Source: a virus (lineage: Duplodnaviria > Caudoviricetes). From it: a stretch of DNA of 32,824 bases. Shown here in pieces: positions 6,317 to 31,529 of the stretch (within the stretch, counting starts at the first letter, position 1; each line of letters starts with the position of its first letter). The stretch is from positions 1-32,824 of the IMG/VR virus record IMGVR_UViG_3300025391_000257. One strand, written 5' to 3'. Both the position numbers and the translations under genes were made by a program. A model generated the notes under the pieces. The model was not told the origin of the DNA and did no database searches. It was given only the letters and a program-made list of their open reading frames with translations.

Positions 6317-6860
6317 TAGGCACCAATGTCATCATTTCTTCAAACAATTCACCGGCAAATTTAAAACATAGTTTAGCTTCGTCGGCCATATCATCAGTTA
6401 ATTTCTCACGAATATTTGCCTTAAGAGCATCAGCATCTTCAAACTTATACATACGCCCGGACCCAGGAACCCGTTTGGCAATCATCTGTCCGCCGGCCAT
6501 GTCTCCAAAATGGCGTACATAAATATGTGCTAGTAATTTTTTAGGATCGTCTTTGATACTCATAATGTGATCGATGTAACGTTTAACCACAGGAAGTATT
6601 GTAGGTTCGCCGTCGATTTCTCTATCCCATAGCTCTTCAAAATCTGAAATAATTGCAGGCGCACGTCGAGCATCTGCGGTATTGCCTAATAATCCAGGAT
6701 ACATCATAGCACACACTTCTACAATTTCATAACAAGGATGCTGATTTTTTAAATACTGTGCGTATAGCTTAGGATCAATCTTTCCTGAAAACAAAACTTT
6801 TACAAATGGTTTTGTTTCAGCTTCTTTATGTGCTTCATAGGTAAGATCTTTTAAACTCAT
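6309..6860 (-). CDS. hemO: Heme oxygenase
   Basis: LKDLTYEAHKEAE (proximal His) and HIYVRHFGDMAGGQMI (distal helix). Confidence 0.92.
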   Translation of the reverse strand: MSLKDLTYEAHKEAETKPFVKVLFSGKIDPKLYAQYLKNQHPCYEIVEVCAMMYPGLLGNTADARRAPAIISDFEELWDREIDGEPTILPVVKRYIDHIMSIKDDPKKLLAHIYVRHFGDMAGGQMIAKRVPGSGRMYKFEDADALKANIREKLTDDMADEAKLCFKFAGELFEEMMTLVPNE

Positions 6861-7159
6861 TCTTCTTCCAATTTAATTTGTAATGGATGGCCGTTTGTAC
6901 GAGCCTGGGTAGTTGCTTCGACTGCTTTAGATTCGGCTATTTCAAAGCTATAAATACCTGCCACTCCGGATCCAGTTTCGTGGACTTGTAACATTATATC
7001 CCTAGCACTGTCTTGAGTGTGTTTAAAAATTTCAACTAAGACTGCAATCACAAACTCCATTGGTGTTGAATCATCATTTAGTAGAATTACCTTCCAACGC
7101 TTAGGTTCAGATGCACGAATTTTAATCTTCTCGTCTAGTTGGATATCAGTTGTTGACAT
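6857..7159 (-). CDS. clpS: ATP-dependent Clp protease adaptor ClpS
   Basis: WKVILLNDDSTPMEFVIAVL, MLQVHETG, AESK and GHPL; start reassigned to the ATG at 7159. Confidence 0.95.
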   Translation of the reverse strand: MSTTDIQLDEKIKIRASEPKRWKVILLNDDSTPMEFVIAVLVEIFKHTQDSARDIMLQVHETGSGVAGIYSFEIAESKAVEATTQARTNGHPLQIKLEEE

Positions 7160-7172
7160 TATATTCTCTTTC

Positions 7173-7196
7173 AAAAGAGGGGGAGTTGCCTCCCCC
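7173..7196 (-). terminator. Rho-independent terminator after hsp20
   Basis: GGGGGAG-GCAA-CTCCCCC followed by TCTTTT on the minus strand. Confidence 0.8.
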
Positions 7197-7202
7197 GGTT
7201 GA

Positions 7203-7634
7203 TTATTTAACTTTAATAATACGTGGTTTTAATGCTTCTGGAACAATACGTTCAATTTCAATAACCAACATACCGTCCTTAACTTCTGCATCTTTAACTT
7301 CCATGTATTCAGCAAGAGTCCATGTTTGTTCAAAGTTGCGTGATGCTAAACCTCTGTGCAAATATTCTTTGCTTTCGTTTACTACTTCACCTTGTATACC
7401 ACGAACAACTAATTGATCCTGGTCCACTTCTACTGTGATTTCATCTTTACTGAATCCTGCTACTGCTACTTCAATAGCATATTTACTATCACTATATTTC
7501 ACAATGTTATGTGGAGGATAGTTACCATTTACTTGTTGCAGTCTCTGGTTAAAGATTTGATCGAAACCAATTAAGGCTCTACTTAGATTTGCGAAGTCCG
7601 CTGGACTTACTGTTTTTAATTGCATCGTTGCCAT
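7203..7634 (-). CDS. Small heat-shock protein (Hsp20/IbpA family)
   Basis: IGFD, NYPPHNIVK, IEVAVAGF, YLHRGLASRNF, DGML and PEALKPR. Confidence 0.96.
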   Translation of the reverse strand: MATMQLKTVSPADFANLSRALIGFDQIFNQRLQQVNGNYPPHNIVKYSDSKYAIEVAVAGFSKDEITVEVDQDQLVVRGIQGEVVNESKEYLHRGLASRNFEQTWTLAEYMEVKDAEVKDGMLVIEIERIVPEALKPRIIKVK

Positions 7635-11437: not shown

Positions 11438-11466
11438 ATTATAGCATACTTAGAACTGTGTGTCAA
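11438..11466 (-). promoter_or_regulatory. Consensus sigma70 promoter
   Basis: TTGACA-17 nt-TATAAT, ending 6 nt before the ATG at 11431. Confidence 0.85.
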
Positions 11467-11693
11467 TACATTTTTTTAGGTAATTGTTGATCTTGCAACT
11501 TTTTACGCCAACGAGCTTTGGCCGCGCCTTTTTTACGCTTACGCTCTGTAGTTGGCTTTTCGTAGAACTCTTTGGCTCTTAATACGTCCAAAAGTTTACT
11601 GTCATCAATTTTACGTTTAAATCGACGTAAGGCTTGGTTGATGTTTTCGTTATCTTTAACTGTAACACCAGTCCCTTTAGTCTTCTTGTGCAT
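11463..11693 (-). CDS. rpsU: Ribosomal protein bS21
   Basis: [19 protein letters not shown]...[14 protein letters not shown]; start at ATG 11693 after GAGG. Confidence 0.93.
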
Positions 11694-12160: not shown

Positions 12161-13468
12161 CTACTCTCTTGTTTTTGTTTGCAAGATCCCGTCCTCGTCC
12201 TTGATCATGTAGGTCTTTTTTTTTGAGTTGTCCTCGGGTAAATCAACGTCCAAAGAAACTTCGTGTCCTTCACCGTTGATATATGTTTCCCCTTTTGCTA
12301 CCCTTTCTTCAACCGTAGACTCTGGTTGGGCTATTGCCTTTTCAGCTTCTTCTATCATACGGTTCCATTTATCTAATTCACTTATAGATTCAGATGAATC
12401 TACTGTAATTTCTTCTGGCGCTGTTATATCACCTCCTAGTGCAGTCGCCGGCGTTGCGATAAATTCTTCTTCACTGATATCTTCACCAATCTCATAGTCA
12501 ACAATTGGTTCTTTTTTTGGTACTTCAAATTCTGGACCAGTCTGTATCCATTCTCCTCCAGGAGTACGCACACCTTCAAATTCGGTAACAGTTTCTTTAA
12601 TCTGCTCAATTTGAGTTTCTGTCAGAGGTCCATCATCTTTCTCGTAGTCTGCAGGCTTCTCGCCTACATCTGCTACATAAGGATCAGGTGTATCTTCTTT
12701 CAAATCTTGTTGTTCTCTTGTCCATGCAAATGTCATCTGTGCGGCTAGTAACATAATAACTGCTAGTGGATCAAATACAACAACGATTAAGATAATGATC
12801 CAAGTTACTGCTCGTTCCAGCATGGACTCGTCCGGTGCTGTTCCGTAGAGGAAGGCAGCGATATACTTAATAGGGCCAACTTCGGCTTCGACCTTACGTA
12901 CTTCTGCACGTACTGGAGCCGCTTCGTCGTTAAGACTAGCAATAAGTTTCTGCTGGGCTTCAATGTCTTTGGCAAGCGAAACCCTGTCCTTCTGCTGACT
13001 CTTACGTACAGAGTTGGCTTTGTCGGCACCTTTTTCATCTGACGAGCGACCCATGATTTGGTCCACCGCTTCATCCATCTGTTTAAGTTGCTTCCTGTCA
13101 GCTTCGATATTCTCTTTGGCAGTTTTAATTTTTTCATCATATACAGCTATTTTACTCCCGACATCGCCGCTCACTAGCGTTTGATCGTTGTGTGCTTTAC
13201 TAAGGAATCCAAAGATACCCATTGATGTGATCAGCATCAGTACAATGACTGCAATAGTCATATAGTATTTCATGAAGCGTGGAGCCTTTTCCCAATTGGC
13301 TTTTAACCAAGAGGCGCAGACAAGTTTGCCAACTTCTAGTGCCGAACCCATAATGATGATGGGAATAGCGGCCGCTGAAAAGATAGCGGTCAAACCTACT
13401 ACTGAGTAATAGATTGCGACCGCCGATATTGTTAAACCTGTTAAGAGTAGTAAGTAAGCTAGTATCAT
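12161..13468 (-). CDS. Membrane-anchored coiled-coil protein with an acidic tail; candidate -1 frameshift extends it to 12087
   Basis: Three N-terminal TM helices, a coiled coil, a further TM and an acidic tail. Start probably ATG 13468. Slippery A-AAA-AAG at 12221-12215. Confidence 0.85.
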   Translation of the reverse strand: MILAYLLLLTGLTISAVAIYYSVVGLTAIFSAAAIPIIIMGSALEVGKLVCASWLKANWEKAPRFMKYYMTIAVIVLMLITSMGIFGFLSKAHNDQTLVSGDVGSKIAVYDEKIKTAKENIEADRKQLKQMDEAVDQIMGRSSDEKGADKANSVRKSQQKDRVSLAKDIEAQQKLIASLNDEAAPVRAEVRKVEAEVGPIKYIAAFLYGTAPDESMLERAVTWIIILIVVVFDPLAVIMLLAAQMTFAWTREQQDLKEDTPDPYVADVGEKPADYEKDDGPLTETQIEQIKETVTEFEGVRTPGGEWIQTGPEFEVPKKEPIVDYEIGEDISEEEFIATPATALGGDITAPEEITVDSSESISELDKWNRMIEEAEKAIAQPESTVEERVAKGETYINGEGHEVSLDVDLPEDNSKKKTYMIKDEDGILQTKTRE

Positions 13469-16081: not shown

Positions 16082-16408
16082 TTATACTCGAAAACTTTCG
16101 CCGCAACCGCAACGATCGCGTTCATTTGGATTTTGAAAATCAAATCCTTCGTTGAGCCCATTGCGGACCCAATCCATTATTAAACCATTTAGATAAGGTT
16201 CGTCTTTTAAACTGACCAGTACACAGAAGTCATTTTGAGCATAATTGATTATGCCTTCTTCGCCTTCATACTTGTCCACGTACTCTAACACATAGGCTAA
16301 CCCACTGCATCCTGTAGTTCTTACACCTACCCGAATACCAACACCCTTACCACGTTTGGCAAGATTTTGTTTAATCTTCTTTTGTGCTGTGTCTGTTACG
16401 ATAATCAT
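16082..16408 (-). CDS. iscA: Fe-S cluster A-type carrier IscA
   Basis: RVGVRTTGCSGLAY and NPNERDRCGCGESF. Confidence 0.95.
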   Translation of the reverse strand: MIIVTDTAQKKIKQNLAKRGKGVGIRVGVRTTGCSGLAYVLEYVDKYEGEEGIINYAQNDFCVLVSLKDEPYLNGLIMDWVRNGLNEGFDFQNPNERDRCGCGESFRV

Positions 16409-16763
16409 TTATGGCTGCCTTAATGGCATCTTCTGCAAGAATTGAACAATGTATCTTTACAGGTGGTAATGCTAGTTCTTCTGCGATTTGGGAGTTTTTA
16501 AGGTTAATAGCATCATCAATATGCATACCTTTAACCCACTCAGTAACCAGTGAGCTCGACGCGATTGCTGAACCGCATCCGTATGTCTTGAAACGAGCAT
16601 CTCTAATAATACCATCTTCGTCTACCTTTATTTGTAACTTCATTACATCACCACAAGCTGGTGCTCCCACCATACCTGTACCTATTGTAGGATCATTCTT
16701 ATCAAACGATCCTACATTACGAGGATTTTCATAATGATCAATTACCTTATCTGAATATGCCAT
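16371..16763 (-). CDS. iscU: Fe-S cluster scaffold IscU
   Basis: MAYSDKVIDHYENPRNVG, GAPACGDVM, KTYGCGSAIASSS and LPPVKIHCS. Confidence 0.98.
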   Translation of the reverse strand: MAYSDKVIDHYENPRNVGSFDKNDPTIGTGMVGAPACGDVMKLQIKVDEDGIIRDARFKTYGCGSAIASSSLVTEWVKGMHIDDAINLKNSQIAEELALPPVKIHCSILAEDAIKAAINDYRNRHSTKED

Positions 16764-25979: not shown

Positions 25980-26008
25980 AGTATACGCTAACTTTATCTA
26001 AAGGTCAA
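25980..26008 (-). promoter_or_regulatory. sigma70-type promoter of the exonuclease gene
   Basis: TTGACC-17 nt-TATACT, ending 8 nt before the ATG. Confidence 0.7.
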
Positions 26009-26317
26009 CTACGCGAACTCTCGATCTGTGGCTGCCATCGCCATTTTTGTTATATCATCTTCGCCATTATCTTGCCCCTGACCTTTTGGTTCTTGTTTAT
26101 TGTTAGTATTAAGAACTATACCTTGGTCGTTAAAACGGGTAACAAGTTGTTTAAGGATTGGATCGCTGTCCCAACGTGCTTTGAATCGATTATAGTCGAT
26201 TGGGATACCAGCATTTTGAAGTTCTTCCCAAGTTTCAACTTCTTCTTGGTCAGTATTATTGGCTGCAGATTGCATAACCTGCAGCCTTTGAATTAACGGA
26301 TCTATTGTTTCAATTAT
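26009..26317 (-). CDS. Orphan reading frame, probably the -1 frameshift extension of 26314..27351
   Basis: Frame is open from the A10 run: IIETIDPLIQRLQV-MQSAANN...DREFA. The internal ATG at 26275 sits in a hairpin loop. Confidence 0.65.
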   Translation of the reverse strand: MIETIDPLIQRLQVMQSAANNTDQEEVETWEELQNAGIPIDYNRFKARWDSDPILKQLVTRFNDQGIVLNTNNKQEPKGQGQDNGEDDITKMAMAATDREFA

Positions 26318-27351
26318 TTTTTTTTTGATTGAGCTAAAAGGATGCCTAACTTGCGGCTGTATTCAACGCCTTCACGCTTCATACGACCGGCAGCTTCTGG
26401 GCCTGCTCCGCCTGCTTCAGCACCCATCTCTGGTGCTTCTTCTTCACCGCCTGGCATTGGAGGCATACCGCCTTCAGCACCCATAGCTGGAGCTTCTTCT
26501 GCACCGGGTACTGGAGGCATACCGCCTGTGTCAGCACCCATTGTAGGAGCTTCGCCACCTGATACTACAGATAGTCCAGCTGATAGTCCTTGACGACTTG
26601 ATTCTAATGCTGAATAAACTTGTTCTAGTGCTGGTTTGACTGATTGCTCGTACTTGCTAGCAACGTCACTGCCTAGTGTTTCTCTTATAGAGTCTAATAA
26701 TTCTAAAAGGTGTTCAGCTTTTAGCTGAGCAACGTCTTCTAGCCAGCCTGTAATTTGGTCGACCATGTCTTTAGTTGCCATAATTACTGATGCTTTTTGT
26801 TCTTCGCCTTCTTTCAAGTAAACGATATAGTTAGCCTGACTTTCTGATAGGTCATAACGTGTGGTTAATTCTGCGGCCAATTCTTCTTCATCTGATTCGC
26901 CTAATTTGATACGACTGATTGCTGATTCGATCCACTTAGTTGGAACTGAATGCTCACGTGCCTTTTTAACCATTAATGCTAAACTTACACTTTCCATTTT
27001 CTTTTTCTTATCCTTTGCGGCCTTCTTCATGGCTTCTTTCTTATTACCATCTTTATCTAGATCTAGGAAATCTGGTTTTGCGCCTTCATACATGCCTTCT
27101 TCACGCTCTAAGATGTGTTGATTAATAACATCTAATAAAGCGCGAGTCTTTTGATATTTTGGATTTGAACTGATGTTATCGAAACTTTCACTAACTTCGA
27201 ATTGGCTCATTTCAGTACGTAGTTTATTACGTACATCTTCTAACTGGGCATCACTAAACTGTTCTAAATTTAGTTTGTAGCCAAACTGTTTAGCTAGGCT
27301 TTCATTAAGCTTCTTAGCTGTGATTGGTTTTGATAGTTCTCTAATTTGCAT
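26314..27351 (-). CDS. Putative prohead core/scaffold-like protein
   Basis: TATAAATA upstream; start MQIREL at 27351; acidic and helical; KPDFLDLDKDGNKKE motif; PG/E-rich linker; ends SKKK. Confidence 0.65.
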   Translation of the reverse strand: MQIRELSKPITAKKLNESLAKQFGYKLNLEQFSDAQLEDVRNKLRTEMSQFEVSESFDNISSNPKYQKTRALLDVINQHILEREEGMYEGAKPDFLDLDKDGNKKEAMKKAAKDKKKKMESVSLALMVKKAREHSVPTKWIESAISRIKLGESDEEELAAELTTRYDLSESQANYIVYLKEGEEQKASVIMATKDMVDQITGWLEDVAQLKAEHLLELLDSIRETLGSDVASKYEQSVKPALEQVYSALESSRQGLSAGLSVVSGGEAPTMGADTGGMPPVPGAEEAPAMGAEGGMPPMPGGEEEAPEMGAEAGGAGPEAAGRMKREGVEYSRKLGILLAQSKKK

Positions 27352-27383
27352 GATGGTTTCCCTAAAGCGTTTCTTATTACTAT

Positions 27384-27842
27384 TTATACAAAACTCCACT
27401 TAAACATAGTGGAAATCTTTTCCTGGAAATGTTCAGCGAGGAATTTGCTGTGTTCTAGTTTGTTCAACAGAACCAAATACCTGTCGTAATCTTTGGCTGT
27501 TTTGATGTTCTTACTGTATATCATAGTATCAGAATAATAAGCCCAGTACCTAGTGTCTAATCTTTTAATCTCTATGAATTTTTCTATGCTAGATTTACTA
27601 TACTCCTTAGCCGCCATGATTGCGCAGGTTTTTAAGTAAAATTGCTCGATCACATCTTTGTTACGAATATCGTAAATAGCCCAGTTTTCGTGGTCGTTTT
27701 GTTTGATATAGTAGTTCTTATAGACAATTGACCCGTCTGGTTGTACACTTATTGGTAATGATTTTTTAAGATCTGCTTCAAAGTGCGTTACTAGTTCTTT
27801 GACTATCTTGGGATTAGGTTTTTTAGTTTTGGTTTTTTTCAT
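27384..27842 (-). CDS. Hypothetical phage protein
   Basis: 152-aa ORF that overlaps the upstream gene. Confidence 0.8.
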   Translation of the reverse strand: MKKTKTKKPNPKIVKELVTHFEADLKKSLPISVQPDGSIVYKNYYIKQNDHENWAIYDIRNKDVIEQFYLKTCAIMAAKEYSKSSIEKFIEIKRLDTRYWAYYSDTMIYSKNIKTAKDYDRYLVLLNKLEHSKFLAEHFQEKISTMFKWSFV

Positions 27843-31109: not shown

Positions 31110-31529
31110 TCAAATGCCTATTTTAGCGGACATAGCTTTAAACCAATCGCCTGTACCTTCTTTTACTGCCTTTTTAGCTTGTCTATGTAGGAATTGGCTT
31201 TTGATATCTTCAGGAGCAAAGAACTCTTTAACTACTGCAATAGCATCAGATTCTTTAAAGTCTTTACAACTAAACACGTCTATGTAAGCACTACTTTCGG
31301 GCGCATCATTAAGATGCATGGTTATTGAACTAGTTTCAATTAGTTGTAGGCAACTATAGCCTTGTAGGTGAGGATCACCCTCTTTGAGAAACTTGATAAT
31401 AGGTTCCCCAACTGCTTTCATATCTATACGCTTGACTAGAGATTCAAGCATTTCTTTTATAACTTTGGGATCGCTGACGTTTTCATTACAGCCACCGCAA
31501 TCTAGGATTAAATGATAACCCCAGCTCAT
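31110..31529 (-). CDS. speD: S-adenosylmethionine decarboxylase proenzyme (small prokaryotic type)
   Basis: WGYHLILDC, GYSCLQLIETSSITMH (self-cleavage region) and YIDVFSCKDF. Confidence 0.88.
   Translation of the reverse strand: MSWGYHLILDCGGCNENVSDPKVIKEMLESLVKRIDMKAVGEPIIKFLKEGDPHLQGYSCLQLIETSSITMHLNDAPESSAYIDVFSCKDFKESDAIAVVKEFFAPEDIKSQFLHRQAKKAVKEGTGDWFKAMSAKIGI

Follow-up and report, generated by a model that had tools for sequence, protein, structure and literature searches.

A late gene of 345 codons on the minus strand of the window, the whole 32,824-nt (32.8-kb) virus record that was analysed, ends in a run of ten A's directly before its stop codon, and from the run a start-less frame of 102 codons continues in the -1 frame. 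Judged from the sequences of related viruses compared below, recoding at this junction is programmed with a probability of about nine in ten. The junction appears to be an instance of programmed recoding of a known general kind that is deeply conserved; what is unusual is that the run seems to stand in for the start codon of what was ancestrally a virion gene in its own right, a change apparently undone in nested lineages. The small protein would then probably be made only by extending the late protein before it. The programmed -1 frame shift put forward in an initial annotation of the window is supported by the comparison, in which it is conserved. A literature search made mainly by titles and the beginnings of abstracts returned no prior description of the junction; the words 'frameshift' and 'slippage' are absent from the main text of PMC9723584 on bS21 phages, and 'frameshift' is absent from the text of PMC5259590 on phage CBB.

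The junction in the window

The window has an estimated completeness of 9% and a G+C content of 39.5%, and the sequencing runs containing it were freshwater or lake metagenomes. Related records span 191-356 kb; they encode a prohead protease of the T4 gp21 type and have their tRNA genes in large clusters. The order on the minus strand is late promoter motif, 345-aa gene, start-less 102-codon frame, sigma-70-like promoter, exonuclease, 647-aa fibre-like gene, NrdA and NrdB. The features of the junction are as follows.

27381..27388, minus strand: TATAAATA, a late promoter motif of the T4 type that precedes the 345-aa gene, recognized by sequence
27359..27363, minus strand: Shine-Dalgarno-like AGGGA, 7 nt before the ATG at 27351, recognized by sequence
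26314..27351, minus strand: 345-aa late gene, an ORF from the ATG at 27351 for an acidic helical protein that ends SKKK (the short product)
26317..26326, minus strand: slip site A10 in the context TCA AAA AAA AAA (in relatives mostly TCA AAA AAA AAG)
26314..26316, minus strand: zero-frame stop TAA adjoining the run
26009..26317, minus strand: start-less -1 frame extension of 102 aa that begins IIE, a [VIL]-x-E motif, with the stop TAG at 26009-26011
26261..26286, minus strand: 11-bp hairpin with ATG 26275 in the loop, a clade-specific accessory element
25980..26008, minus strand: sigma-70-like promoter (TTGACC, 17 nt, TATACT) for the exonuclease gene, abutting the stop of the -1 frame

The motif TATAAATA, named as the T4 late promoter in PMC5259590, was found at 62 of the 157 junction loci scored and TAAATA at 95 (20 loci were not scorable). 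Boxes similar to the -35 and -10 elements follow the stop of the -1 frame in most relatives, as assessed by eye. The minus strand of the window reads CAA TCA AAA AAA AAA TAA, so placing the A10 run directly before the stop as initially described, and all other sequence details given for the junction in that annotation were likewise correct. The run is the longest run of A's in the window, in which one other reaches nine (12216-12224). The -1 frame read from 26317 adds 102 aa to the 345 aa for a total of 447 aa; upstream of 26317 this frame closes after 14 codons, and it has no ATG, GTG or TTG ahead of ATG 26275 in the window. The 11-bp hairpin, separated from the run by 30 nt and carrying ATG 26275 in the loop, contains one G-U pair and has a predicted energy of -18.5 kcal/mol (z -4.9), a value equalled by none of 200 shuffled sequences.

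Several genes elsewhere in the window were also recorded. A phage-encoded bS21 ribosomal protein (11463-11672, minus strand, Pfam E 4e-17) lies on the same strand as its neighbours and outside the head genes, unlike the five clades of bS21 phages described in PMC9723584. Auxiliary genes assigned by PHROG encode a NifU-like Fe-S assembly protein (16371-16763), Hsp20 (7203-7634), an ATP-dependent protease family protein (6857-7174) and S-adenosylmethionine decarboxylase (31110-31529). In the relatives, ARAGORN reported CTA-anticodon tRNAs that are possible amber suppressors (L414:17842-17917 and L415:1194-1268) and permuted tmRNA genes in L411 and L414. In L403 (G005:C1:73611-73619) a C-A9 run occurs in a different phase inside a long open frame, beside a tRNA-Pyl-like call (CTA anticodon) in a tRNA region.

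Run and start codon among related viruses

Three scans of viral contigs returned a close set of 240 loci; with the window included, 238 contained both parts, 3 truncated loci were dropped, and 72 distinct junctions were obtained. All 72 have the form (T/C)CA-A9-[G/C/A]-TAA, and in each of them the domain is read in the -1 frame. Codon usage within these genes (TCA in 569 of 1746 serine codons, AAA in 1073 of 1690 lysine codons, AAA-AAA in 43 of 210 Lys-Lys pairs) shows that the amino-acid sequence of the tail does not by itself account for the run. A distant set of 152 more loci was obtained from three sub-alignments with queries picked to find forms with their own start, which brought the whole set to 393 loci, 386 of them usable, and 177 distinct junctions. 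These comprise 56 own-start junctions (55 with an ATG motif and one, L385, with GTG) and 121 start-less junctions, class sizes that do not represent population frequencies because the queries were directed at own-start forms. None of the 56 has nine or more A's, whereas 120 of the 121 have nine or ten, always after C and always in one phase. The single start-less junction without a nine-A run, L319, has only A_AAA_AAG (A6G). All 121 shift to -1.

As criteria for a programmed frameshift cluster, Table 1 of PMC3711429 asks that at least five homologous genes conserve both the frame transition and the site, and that no start and stop be co-located as in translational coupling. Here, 120 of the 121 start-less junctions share (T/C)CA AAA AAA AA[G/C/A], and 113 have no ATG, GTG or TTG at or before the first Glu. 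The zero-frame stop directly follows the third codon in 104 junctions and comes 1-7 codons later in 17, in all of which the run is kept. In the own-start sisters L339 and L360 the SKKK tail is the same and the run is broken by AAG. Runs of nine or more A's are few in five related records of 191-356 kb (2, 4, 4, 2 and 5), and one is the junction in each of the five. Protein-level conservation of the extension starts at its first residues (5 columns are invariant and 14 near-invariant in 51 sequences), and length changes between the run and an Asp-Pro-Leu motif are in whole codons only.

These data bear on an alternative in which the domain is translated on its own, either from a non-AUG codon at the stop (ATA, GTA or CTA, by re-initiation) or from an internal ATG, with the run serving to aid coupling. 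The junction codon does sit where relatives have ATG; in 5 of the 121 junctions that codon is GTG, which overlaps the stop next to the run, and in 2 an ATG comes at the following codon. However, the junction codon varies (GTA, CTA, ATA, GTC, GCT), the 113 junctions noted above offer no start, the positions of internal ATGs are scattered, and the lineages with a true start of their own have lost the run, a combination that makes independent translation improbable. Initiation at ATG 26275, which in the window lies in the hairpin loop, had already been considered unlikely; the first ATG falls at that codon in only 3 of the 121 start-less relatives, 71 have no ATG in the first 30 codons, and a start there is also unlikely because it would remove the invariant residues P7 and L12.

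In some lineages of the own-start group comprising L243, L250, L252, L255 and L261-L291, extra ORFs are inserted between the two genes and begin with similar M-x-[FL]-x-[ED] motifs. In the distant phages P0285, P0287, P0309 and P0380 the small domain has its own start and forms the N-terminus of proteins of 261-771 aa.

The direction of change was assessed with a quick maximum-likelihood tree of the upstream protein, comprising 97 rows thinned by identity from 160 full-length sequences, with SH-aLRT as the only support measure and a midpoint root without an outgroup. Run-bearers form one clade of 66 rows (support 98), and the 31 own-start rows are spread over several deep lineages. Nine own-start rows are nested within the run clade, with the run-bearer L381 among them, and in nested lineages including L339 and L360 the lysine tail stays and is written with AAG. 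The tree requires at least four changes between start and run, and because it needs only four the junction counts are not independent. Under the midpoint root, an own start codon looks ancestral, in many cases an ATG that shares bases with the upstream stop in the -1 frame, with one clade having apparently swapped it for the run and nested lineages having then apparently regained a start and lost the run. The five junctions with both GTG and the run are a possible evolutionary intermediate.

Homopolymers are prone to sequencing error. Contigs from four of four independent DNA runs (X5, X6, X11 and X12, depths 289, 17.5, 49 and 7.5), none of them marked as a possible source of the window, cross the site with no gap, and because all four do so the run length is not an assembly error; this evidence is from contigs, not raw reads, and agrees with the A10 initially reported. 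Taken with the occurrence of the same frame break in 121 junctions and the conservation of the domain as protein, it renders sequencing error or a decayed pseudogene extremely unlikely. A pattern search of metagenomes tolerating one A fewer or one more gave 30 matches (22 distinct, one of which may be the window's own contig), all unfused. Four RNA-library runs yielded low-depth contigs from libraries that may contain DNA. Only one of these contigs, X16 (depth 3.2), reads across the A's, and it does so with no indel, a contig showing the majority form only. Neither a slipped transcript nor a trans-frame peptide was seen. Another RNA contig, X15, ends at the last A of the run and, as one low-depth case, was set aside as evidence.

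A search of 7995 longer proteins sharing most words found one exact in-frame fusion, P0390 (445 aa, Logan, 3 contigs, a singleton), which may reflect fusion in the genome, slippage in the transcript or an error in the homopolymer. P0390 is what would be expected of DNA-level phase variation, in which a subpopulation of genomes with one more A makes only the fusion; against it stand the 30 unfused metagenome matches, the four DNA runs without an indel and the best 120 of 2896 protein homologues, all of which end SKKK or SKKN. Phase variation is consequently regarded as very unlikely.

Candidate routes of slippage

In the mechanism proposed, RNA polymerase would add one extra A when copying the run and so bring part of the expression of the late gene into the -1 frame; most of the product would be the 345-aa protein and a minor part the 447-aa form. 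Polymerase slippage is favoured, at slightly better than even odds, as the main route because the ninth A is fixed, the tenth base is variable, the hairpin is not enriched in distant run-bearers and is lacking at a second nine-A site (described below), its spacer is variable and relatives encode tRNA-Lys(CUU). The ninth A, a wobble position of Ser or Pro, is fixed in 120 of 120 runs, and A_AAA_AAG needs no such A. The base after nine A's is G in 102, C in 9 and A in 9. A homopolymer of at least nine, a criterion for slippage, is present as A10 in the window and as 9-10 A's in 120 of the 121 junctions; PMC5009743 reports efficient slippage in vivo at nine A's. The same source ties tRNA-Lys(CUU) to the use of polymerase slippage in Thermus, and this tRNA is encoded by 4 of 5 relatives in the regions fetched. 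Early closure of the third frame (within 8 codons in 113 of 121) was tried as a further sign of slippage and dropped, the background being 71%.

The same products would arise from ribosomal -1 frameshifting, in which tRNA-Lys would slip back one base at two overlapping heptamers, A_AAA_AAA followed in most relatives by A_AAA_AAG; the stop next to the run would assist, as would the 3' hairpin where the close clade has it. As the main route this is a substantial but lesser possibility. All 121 shifts are to -1 and all 120 runs share one phase, the third codon is AAG in 102 of 111 Lys cases against a background of 37%, L319 is start-less with only the heptamer, and the hairpin is enriched in the close clade. 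According to section 10 of PMC3711429, a single direction of shift predicts ribosomal shifting, slippage being expected in both directions among orthologues. The uniform -1 direction departs from that expectation for slippage; however, it would have been inherited from an ancestral overlap of ATG and stop, hence is not independent evidence, and the test is confounded by this descent. The heptamer A_AAA_AAG is in phase in 103 of the 121 relatives and absent from the window, which has A_AAA_AAA only; the window and 17 junctions without the G have only weak heptamers, yet the nine A's are kept. The phage-encoded tRNA-Lys(CUU) also argues against the ribosomal route. No internal Shine-Dalgarno-like stimulator was evident by eye shortly upstream in the alignment of relatives.

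A 3' stem-loop that stimulates -1 ribosomal shifting typically lies about 5-9 nt after the heptamer. The spacer from run to hairpin is 30 nt in the window, outside that range, and is 1-30 nt (median 11.5) in close relatives, of which only 12 of 66 have 5-9 nt. The hairpin pointed out initially is not a core feature of the junctions and proved to be strong only in the close clade, where it occurs in 25 of 30 junctions versus 1 of 30 control segments and is built by different relatives from different sequences. Its frequency was 7 of 27 versus 3 of 27 controls in distant run-bearers, a result that shows no enrichment and led to its rejection as a universal stimulator, and 8 of 40 versus 7 of 40 at own-start loci. 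In the close clade it may serve to raise the rate of shifting, to mask internal start codons or to stabilize the mRNA. Polymerase and ribosome slippage may also both act.

Predicted protein products and known systems

The 345-aa protein is modelled as mostly helical with a disordered Gly/Pro/Glu tail (pTM 0.37), contains nine [LIV]-x-E motifs that are each kept in 44-51 of 51 sequences, and matches phrog_14154 'virion structural protein' with an E value of 6e-7. It is probably a virion (head-internal) protein. Residues 89-120 (27060-27090 region, minus strand) form a low-confidence, lineage-variable linker that matches phrog_24078 (E 2e-8) and includes the stretch D-F-L-D-L-D-K-D-G-N, which we take to resemble a calcium-binding loop. 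The initial assignment of the protein as scaffold-like is not supported. No scaffold family of PHROG or Pfam was among the matches, and the BFVD matches are uncharacterised proteins. The T4 gp22-type scaffold gene sits beside the prohead protease in the head module; here, in the near-complete relatives G002 and G003, the protease gene is at 82 and 91 kb, respectively, and the homologue of the 345-aa gene at 308 and 320 kb, so that over 200 kb separates the two, and other long acidic or helical ORFs flank the protease. Moreover, a distant homologue was found in purified virions of CBB (PMC5259590).

The extension is predicted to have a winged-helix-like fold over residues ~1-75 (H7-22 E27-29 H30-35 H42-51 H53-58 E59-62 E66-69, pTM 0.58) followed by a disordered tail with a conserved C-terminal Ala motif. 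The top rows of a structural comparison were mostly winged-helix proteins (best Z 4.4, rmsd 3.3, 68 aligned), and since these matches are weak DNA binding is a guess. Foldseek gave no match to PDB or BFVD at E<=0.001, no named Pfam or PHROG family was matched, and the ESM Atlas gave unnamed viral clusters only. The initial description of the extension as an orphan domain was not borne out, as a profile finds 410 representatives at E<=0.001 and distant phages have it as a stand-alone gene with its own ATG. These stand-alone homologues begin M-[RK]-[LIF]-x-E or, more broadly, M-x-[LIF]-x-E.

The 102-aa protein alone as query gave no match in a viral-contig scan, an alignment being required, and cultured phages likewise gave no match when queried by tblastn with the full protein or with a homologue of the domain. 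The link to cultured phages came from a non-significant hit (E 2), followed by synteny and profiles. In PHA46 a 210-aa and a 109-aa gene are followed by exonuclease and NrdA/NrdB in the order of the window. The upstream protein aligns with the syntenic 210-aa protein of PHA46 (hhalign E 4e-7) and has a homologue, by profile E values of 1e-10 to 8e-20, in each of the 6 cultured phages compared. The small domain compared with CBB_299-type proteins gave an hhalign E of 5e-4 (probability 31%) and profile E values of 3e-4 to 0.08 on 6 proteins; the match is weak by sequence, and homology is probable from synteny, size and end motifs. The same upstream-small gene order occurs in Rak2-like and related jumbo phages (121Q gp27/gp28, CBB_298/299, PHA46; phrog_14154, phrog_15050). 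In all 6 cultured jumbo phages examined the two are separate genes, each with its own ATG and with A runs of at most 6, in contrast to the start-less frame and A10 of the window. Table 4 of PMC5259590, the virion proteome of CBB, lists 10 peptides for CBB_298 and 2 for CBB_299. Probable homologues of both window proteins are therein, on the assignments above, constituents of CBB virions.

Just behind the slip, 120 of the 121 start-less junctions encode a [VIL]-x-E motif, which matches the N-terminal motif of the stand-alone forms. The T4 prohead protease recognizes (I/L)-x-E, and a PF03420 (gp21-type) protease is present in 5 of 5 related records. Glu is the residue after which prohead proteases of the T4 type cleave (PMC5694885, PMC10052503). 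With odds somewhat short of even, the long form could be a head-internal precursor from which the prohead protease releases the extension on maturation. The gp21-like protease would cut after the [VIL]-x-E behind the slip, the motif of these phages' own protease being presumed; the cut would free a small protein much like the one that own-start relatives translate directly, and its copy number would be set by the slip rate. The low-copy extended isoform of the initial annotation may instead be a precursor from which the domain is removed.

A second site, TCA AAA AAA AAG (12216-12224, minus strand), lies near the end of a 442-aa gene that has weak, sub-threshold matches to membrane-protein Pfam families. 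The same motif in the same phase was found in 5 of 5 related records, ~13-15 kb beyond the first junction, and no strong hairpin follows the site. Its -1 frame is 95-118 codons in the five records and only 46 in the window; 4 of the 5 extensions resemble that of the window by eye. Tentatively, this clade of jumbo phages might use one nine-A signal, present in two unrelated genes, as a general device for dosing late genes, with a slip-fused small virion protein carried into the prohead by its abundant neighbour and then released by protease, and recoding and initiation reversible and interchangeable. If so, recoding and ordinary initiation would be reversible states traceable on a tree. One gene pair offers a natural experiment on the gain and loss of recoding, since it is found in the form of two genes, of a slip fusion with no start and of an intermediate that has both GTG and the run, with reversions as well. 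If release by the protease is true, frameshifting would set the dose of a head protein and not make a new two-domain protein. The junction also exposes mis-annotation, in that gene callers assign scattered false starts to the domain throughout the clade.

Frameshift-extended phage structural proteins include T7 gp10A/10B and the Ig-domain extensions. The tail assembly chaperone G/GT is also a late virion-module gene with a short major and a long minor product, for which a frameshift efficiency of 6-7% is given (PMC3711429). The window differs from these three in its protein family, its pure homopolymer site and an extension that is predicted to be cut off. With the -1 shifting of E. coli dnaX and IS elements at A_AAA_AAG (PMC5009743, PMC4066793) it shares the -1 direction, the heptamer in 103 of the 121 junctions and the 3' stem-loop of the close clade, whereas the window family has three extra invariant A's, a dispensable G and a variable, often long hairpin spacer, and its distant lineages have no hairpin signal. 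In Thermus thermophilus dnaX, the two-ORF dnaX (10 A's) and Citrobacter rodentium tssM1 (PMC5009743, PMC3711429, PMC4256274), 9-11 A's likewise end a short ORF. The long products of tssM1 and the two-ORF dnaX need an added A, as proposed for the window, and these systems make two co-N-terminal proteins at a set ratio, as is predicted here. The window, in which slippage is a proposal, differs from them in that the gene is a phage late gene, the direction and phase are invariant among orthologues, and the added part probably descends from an independent gene.
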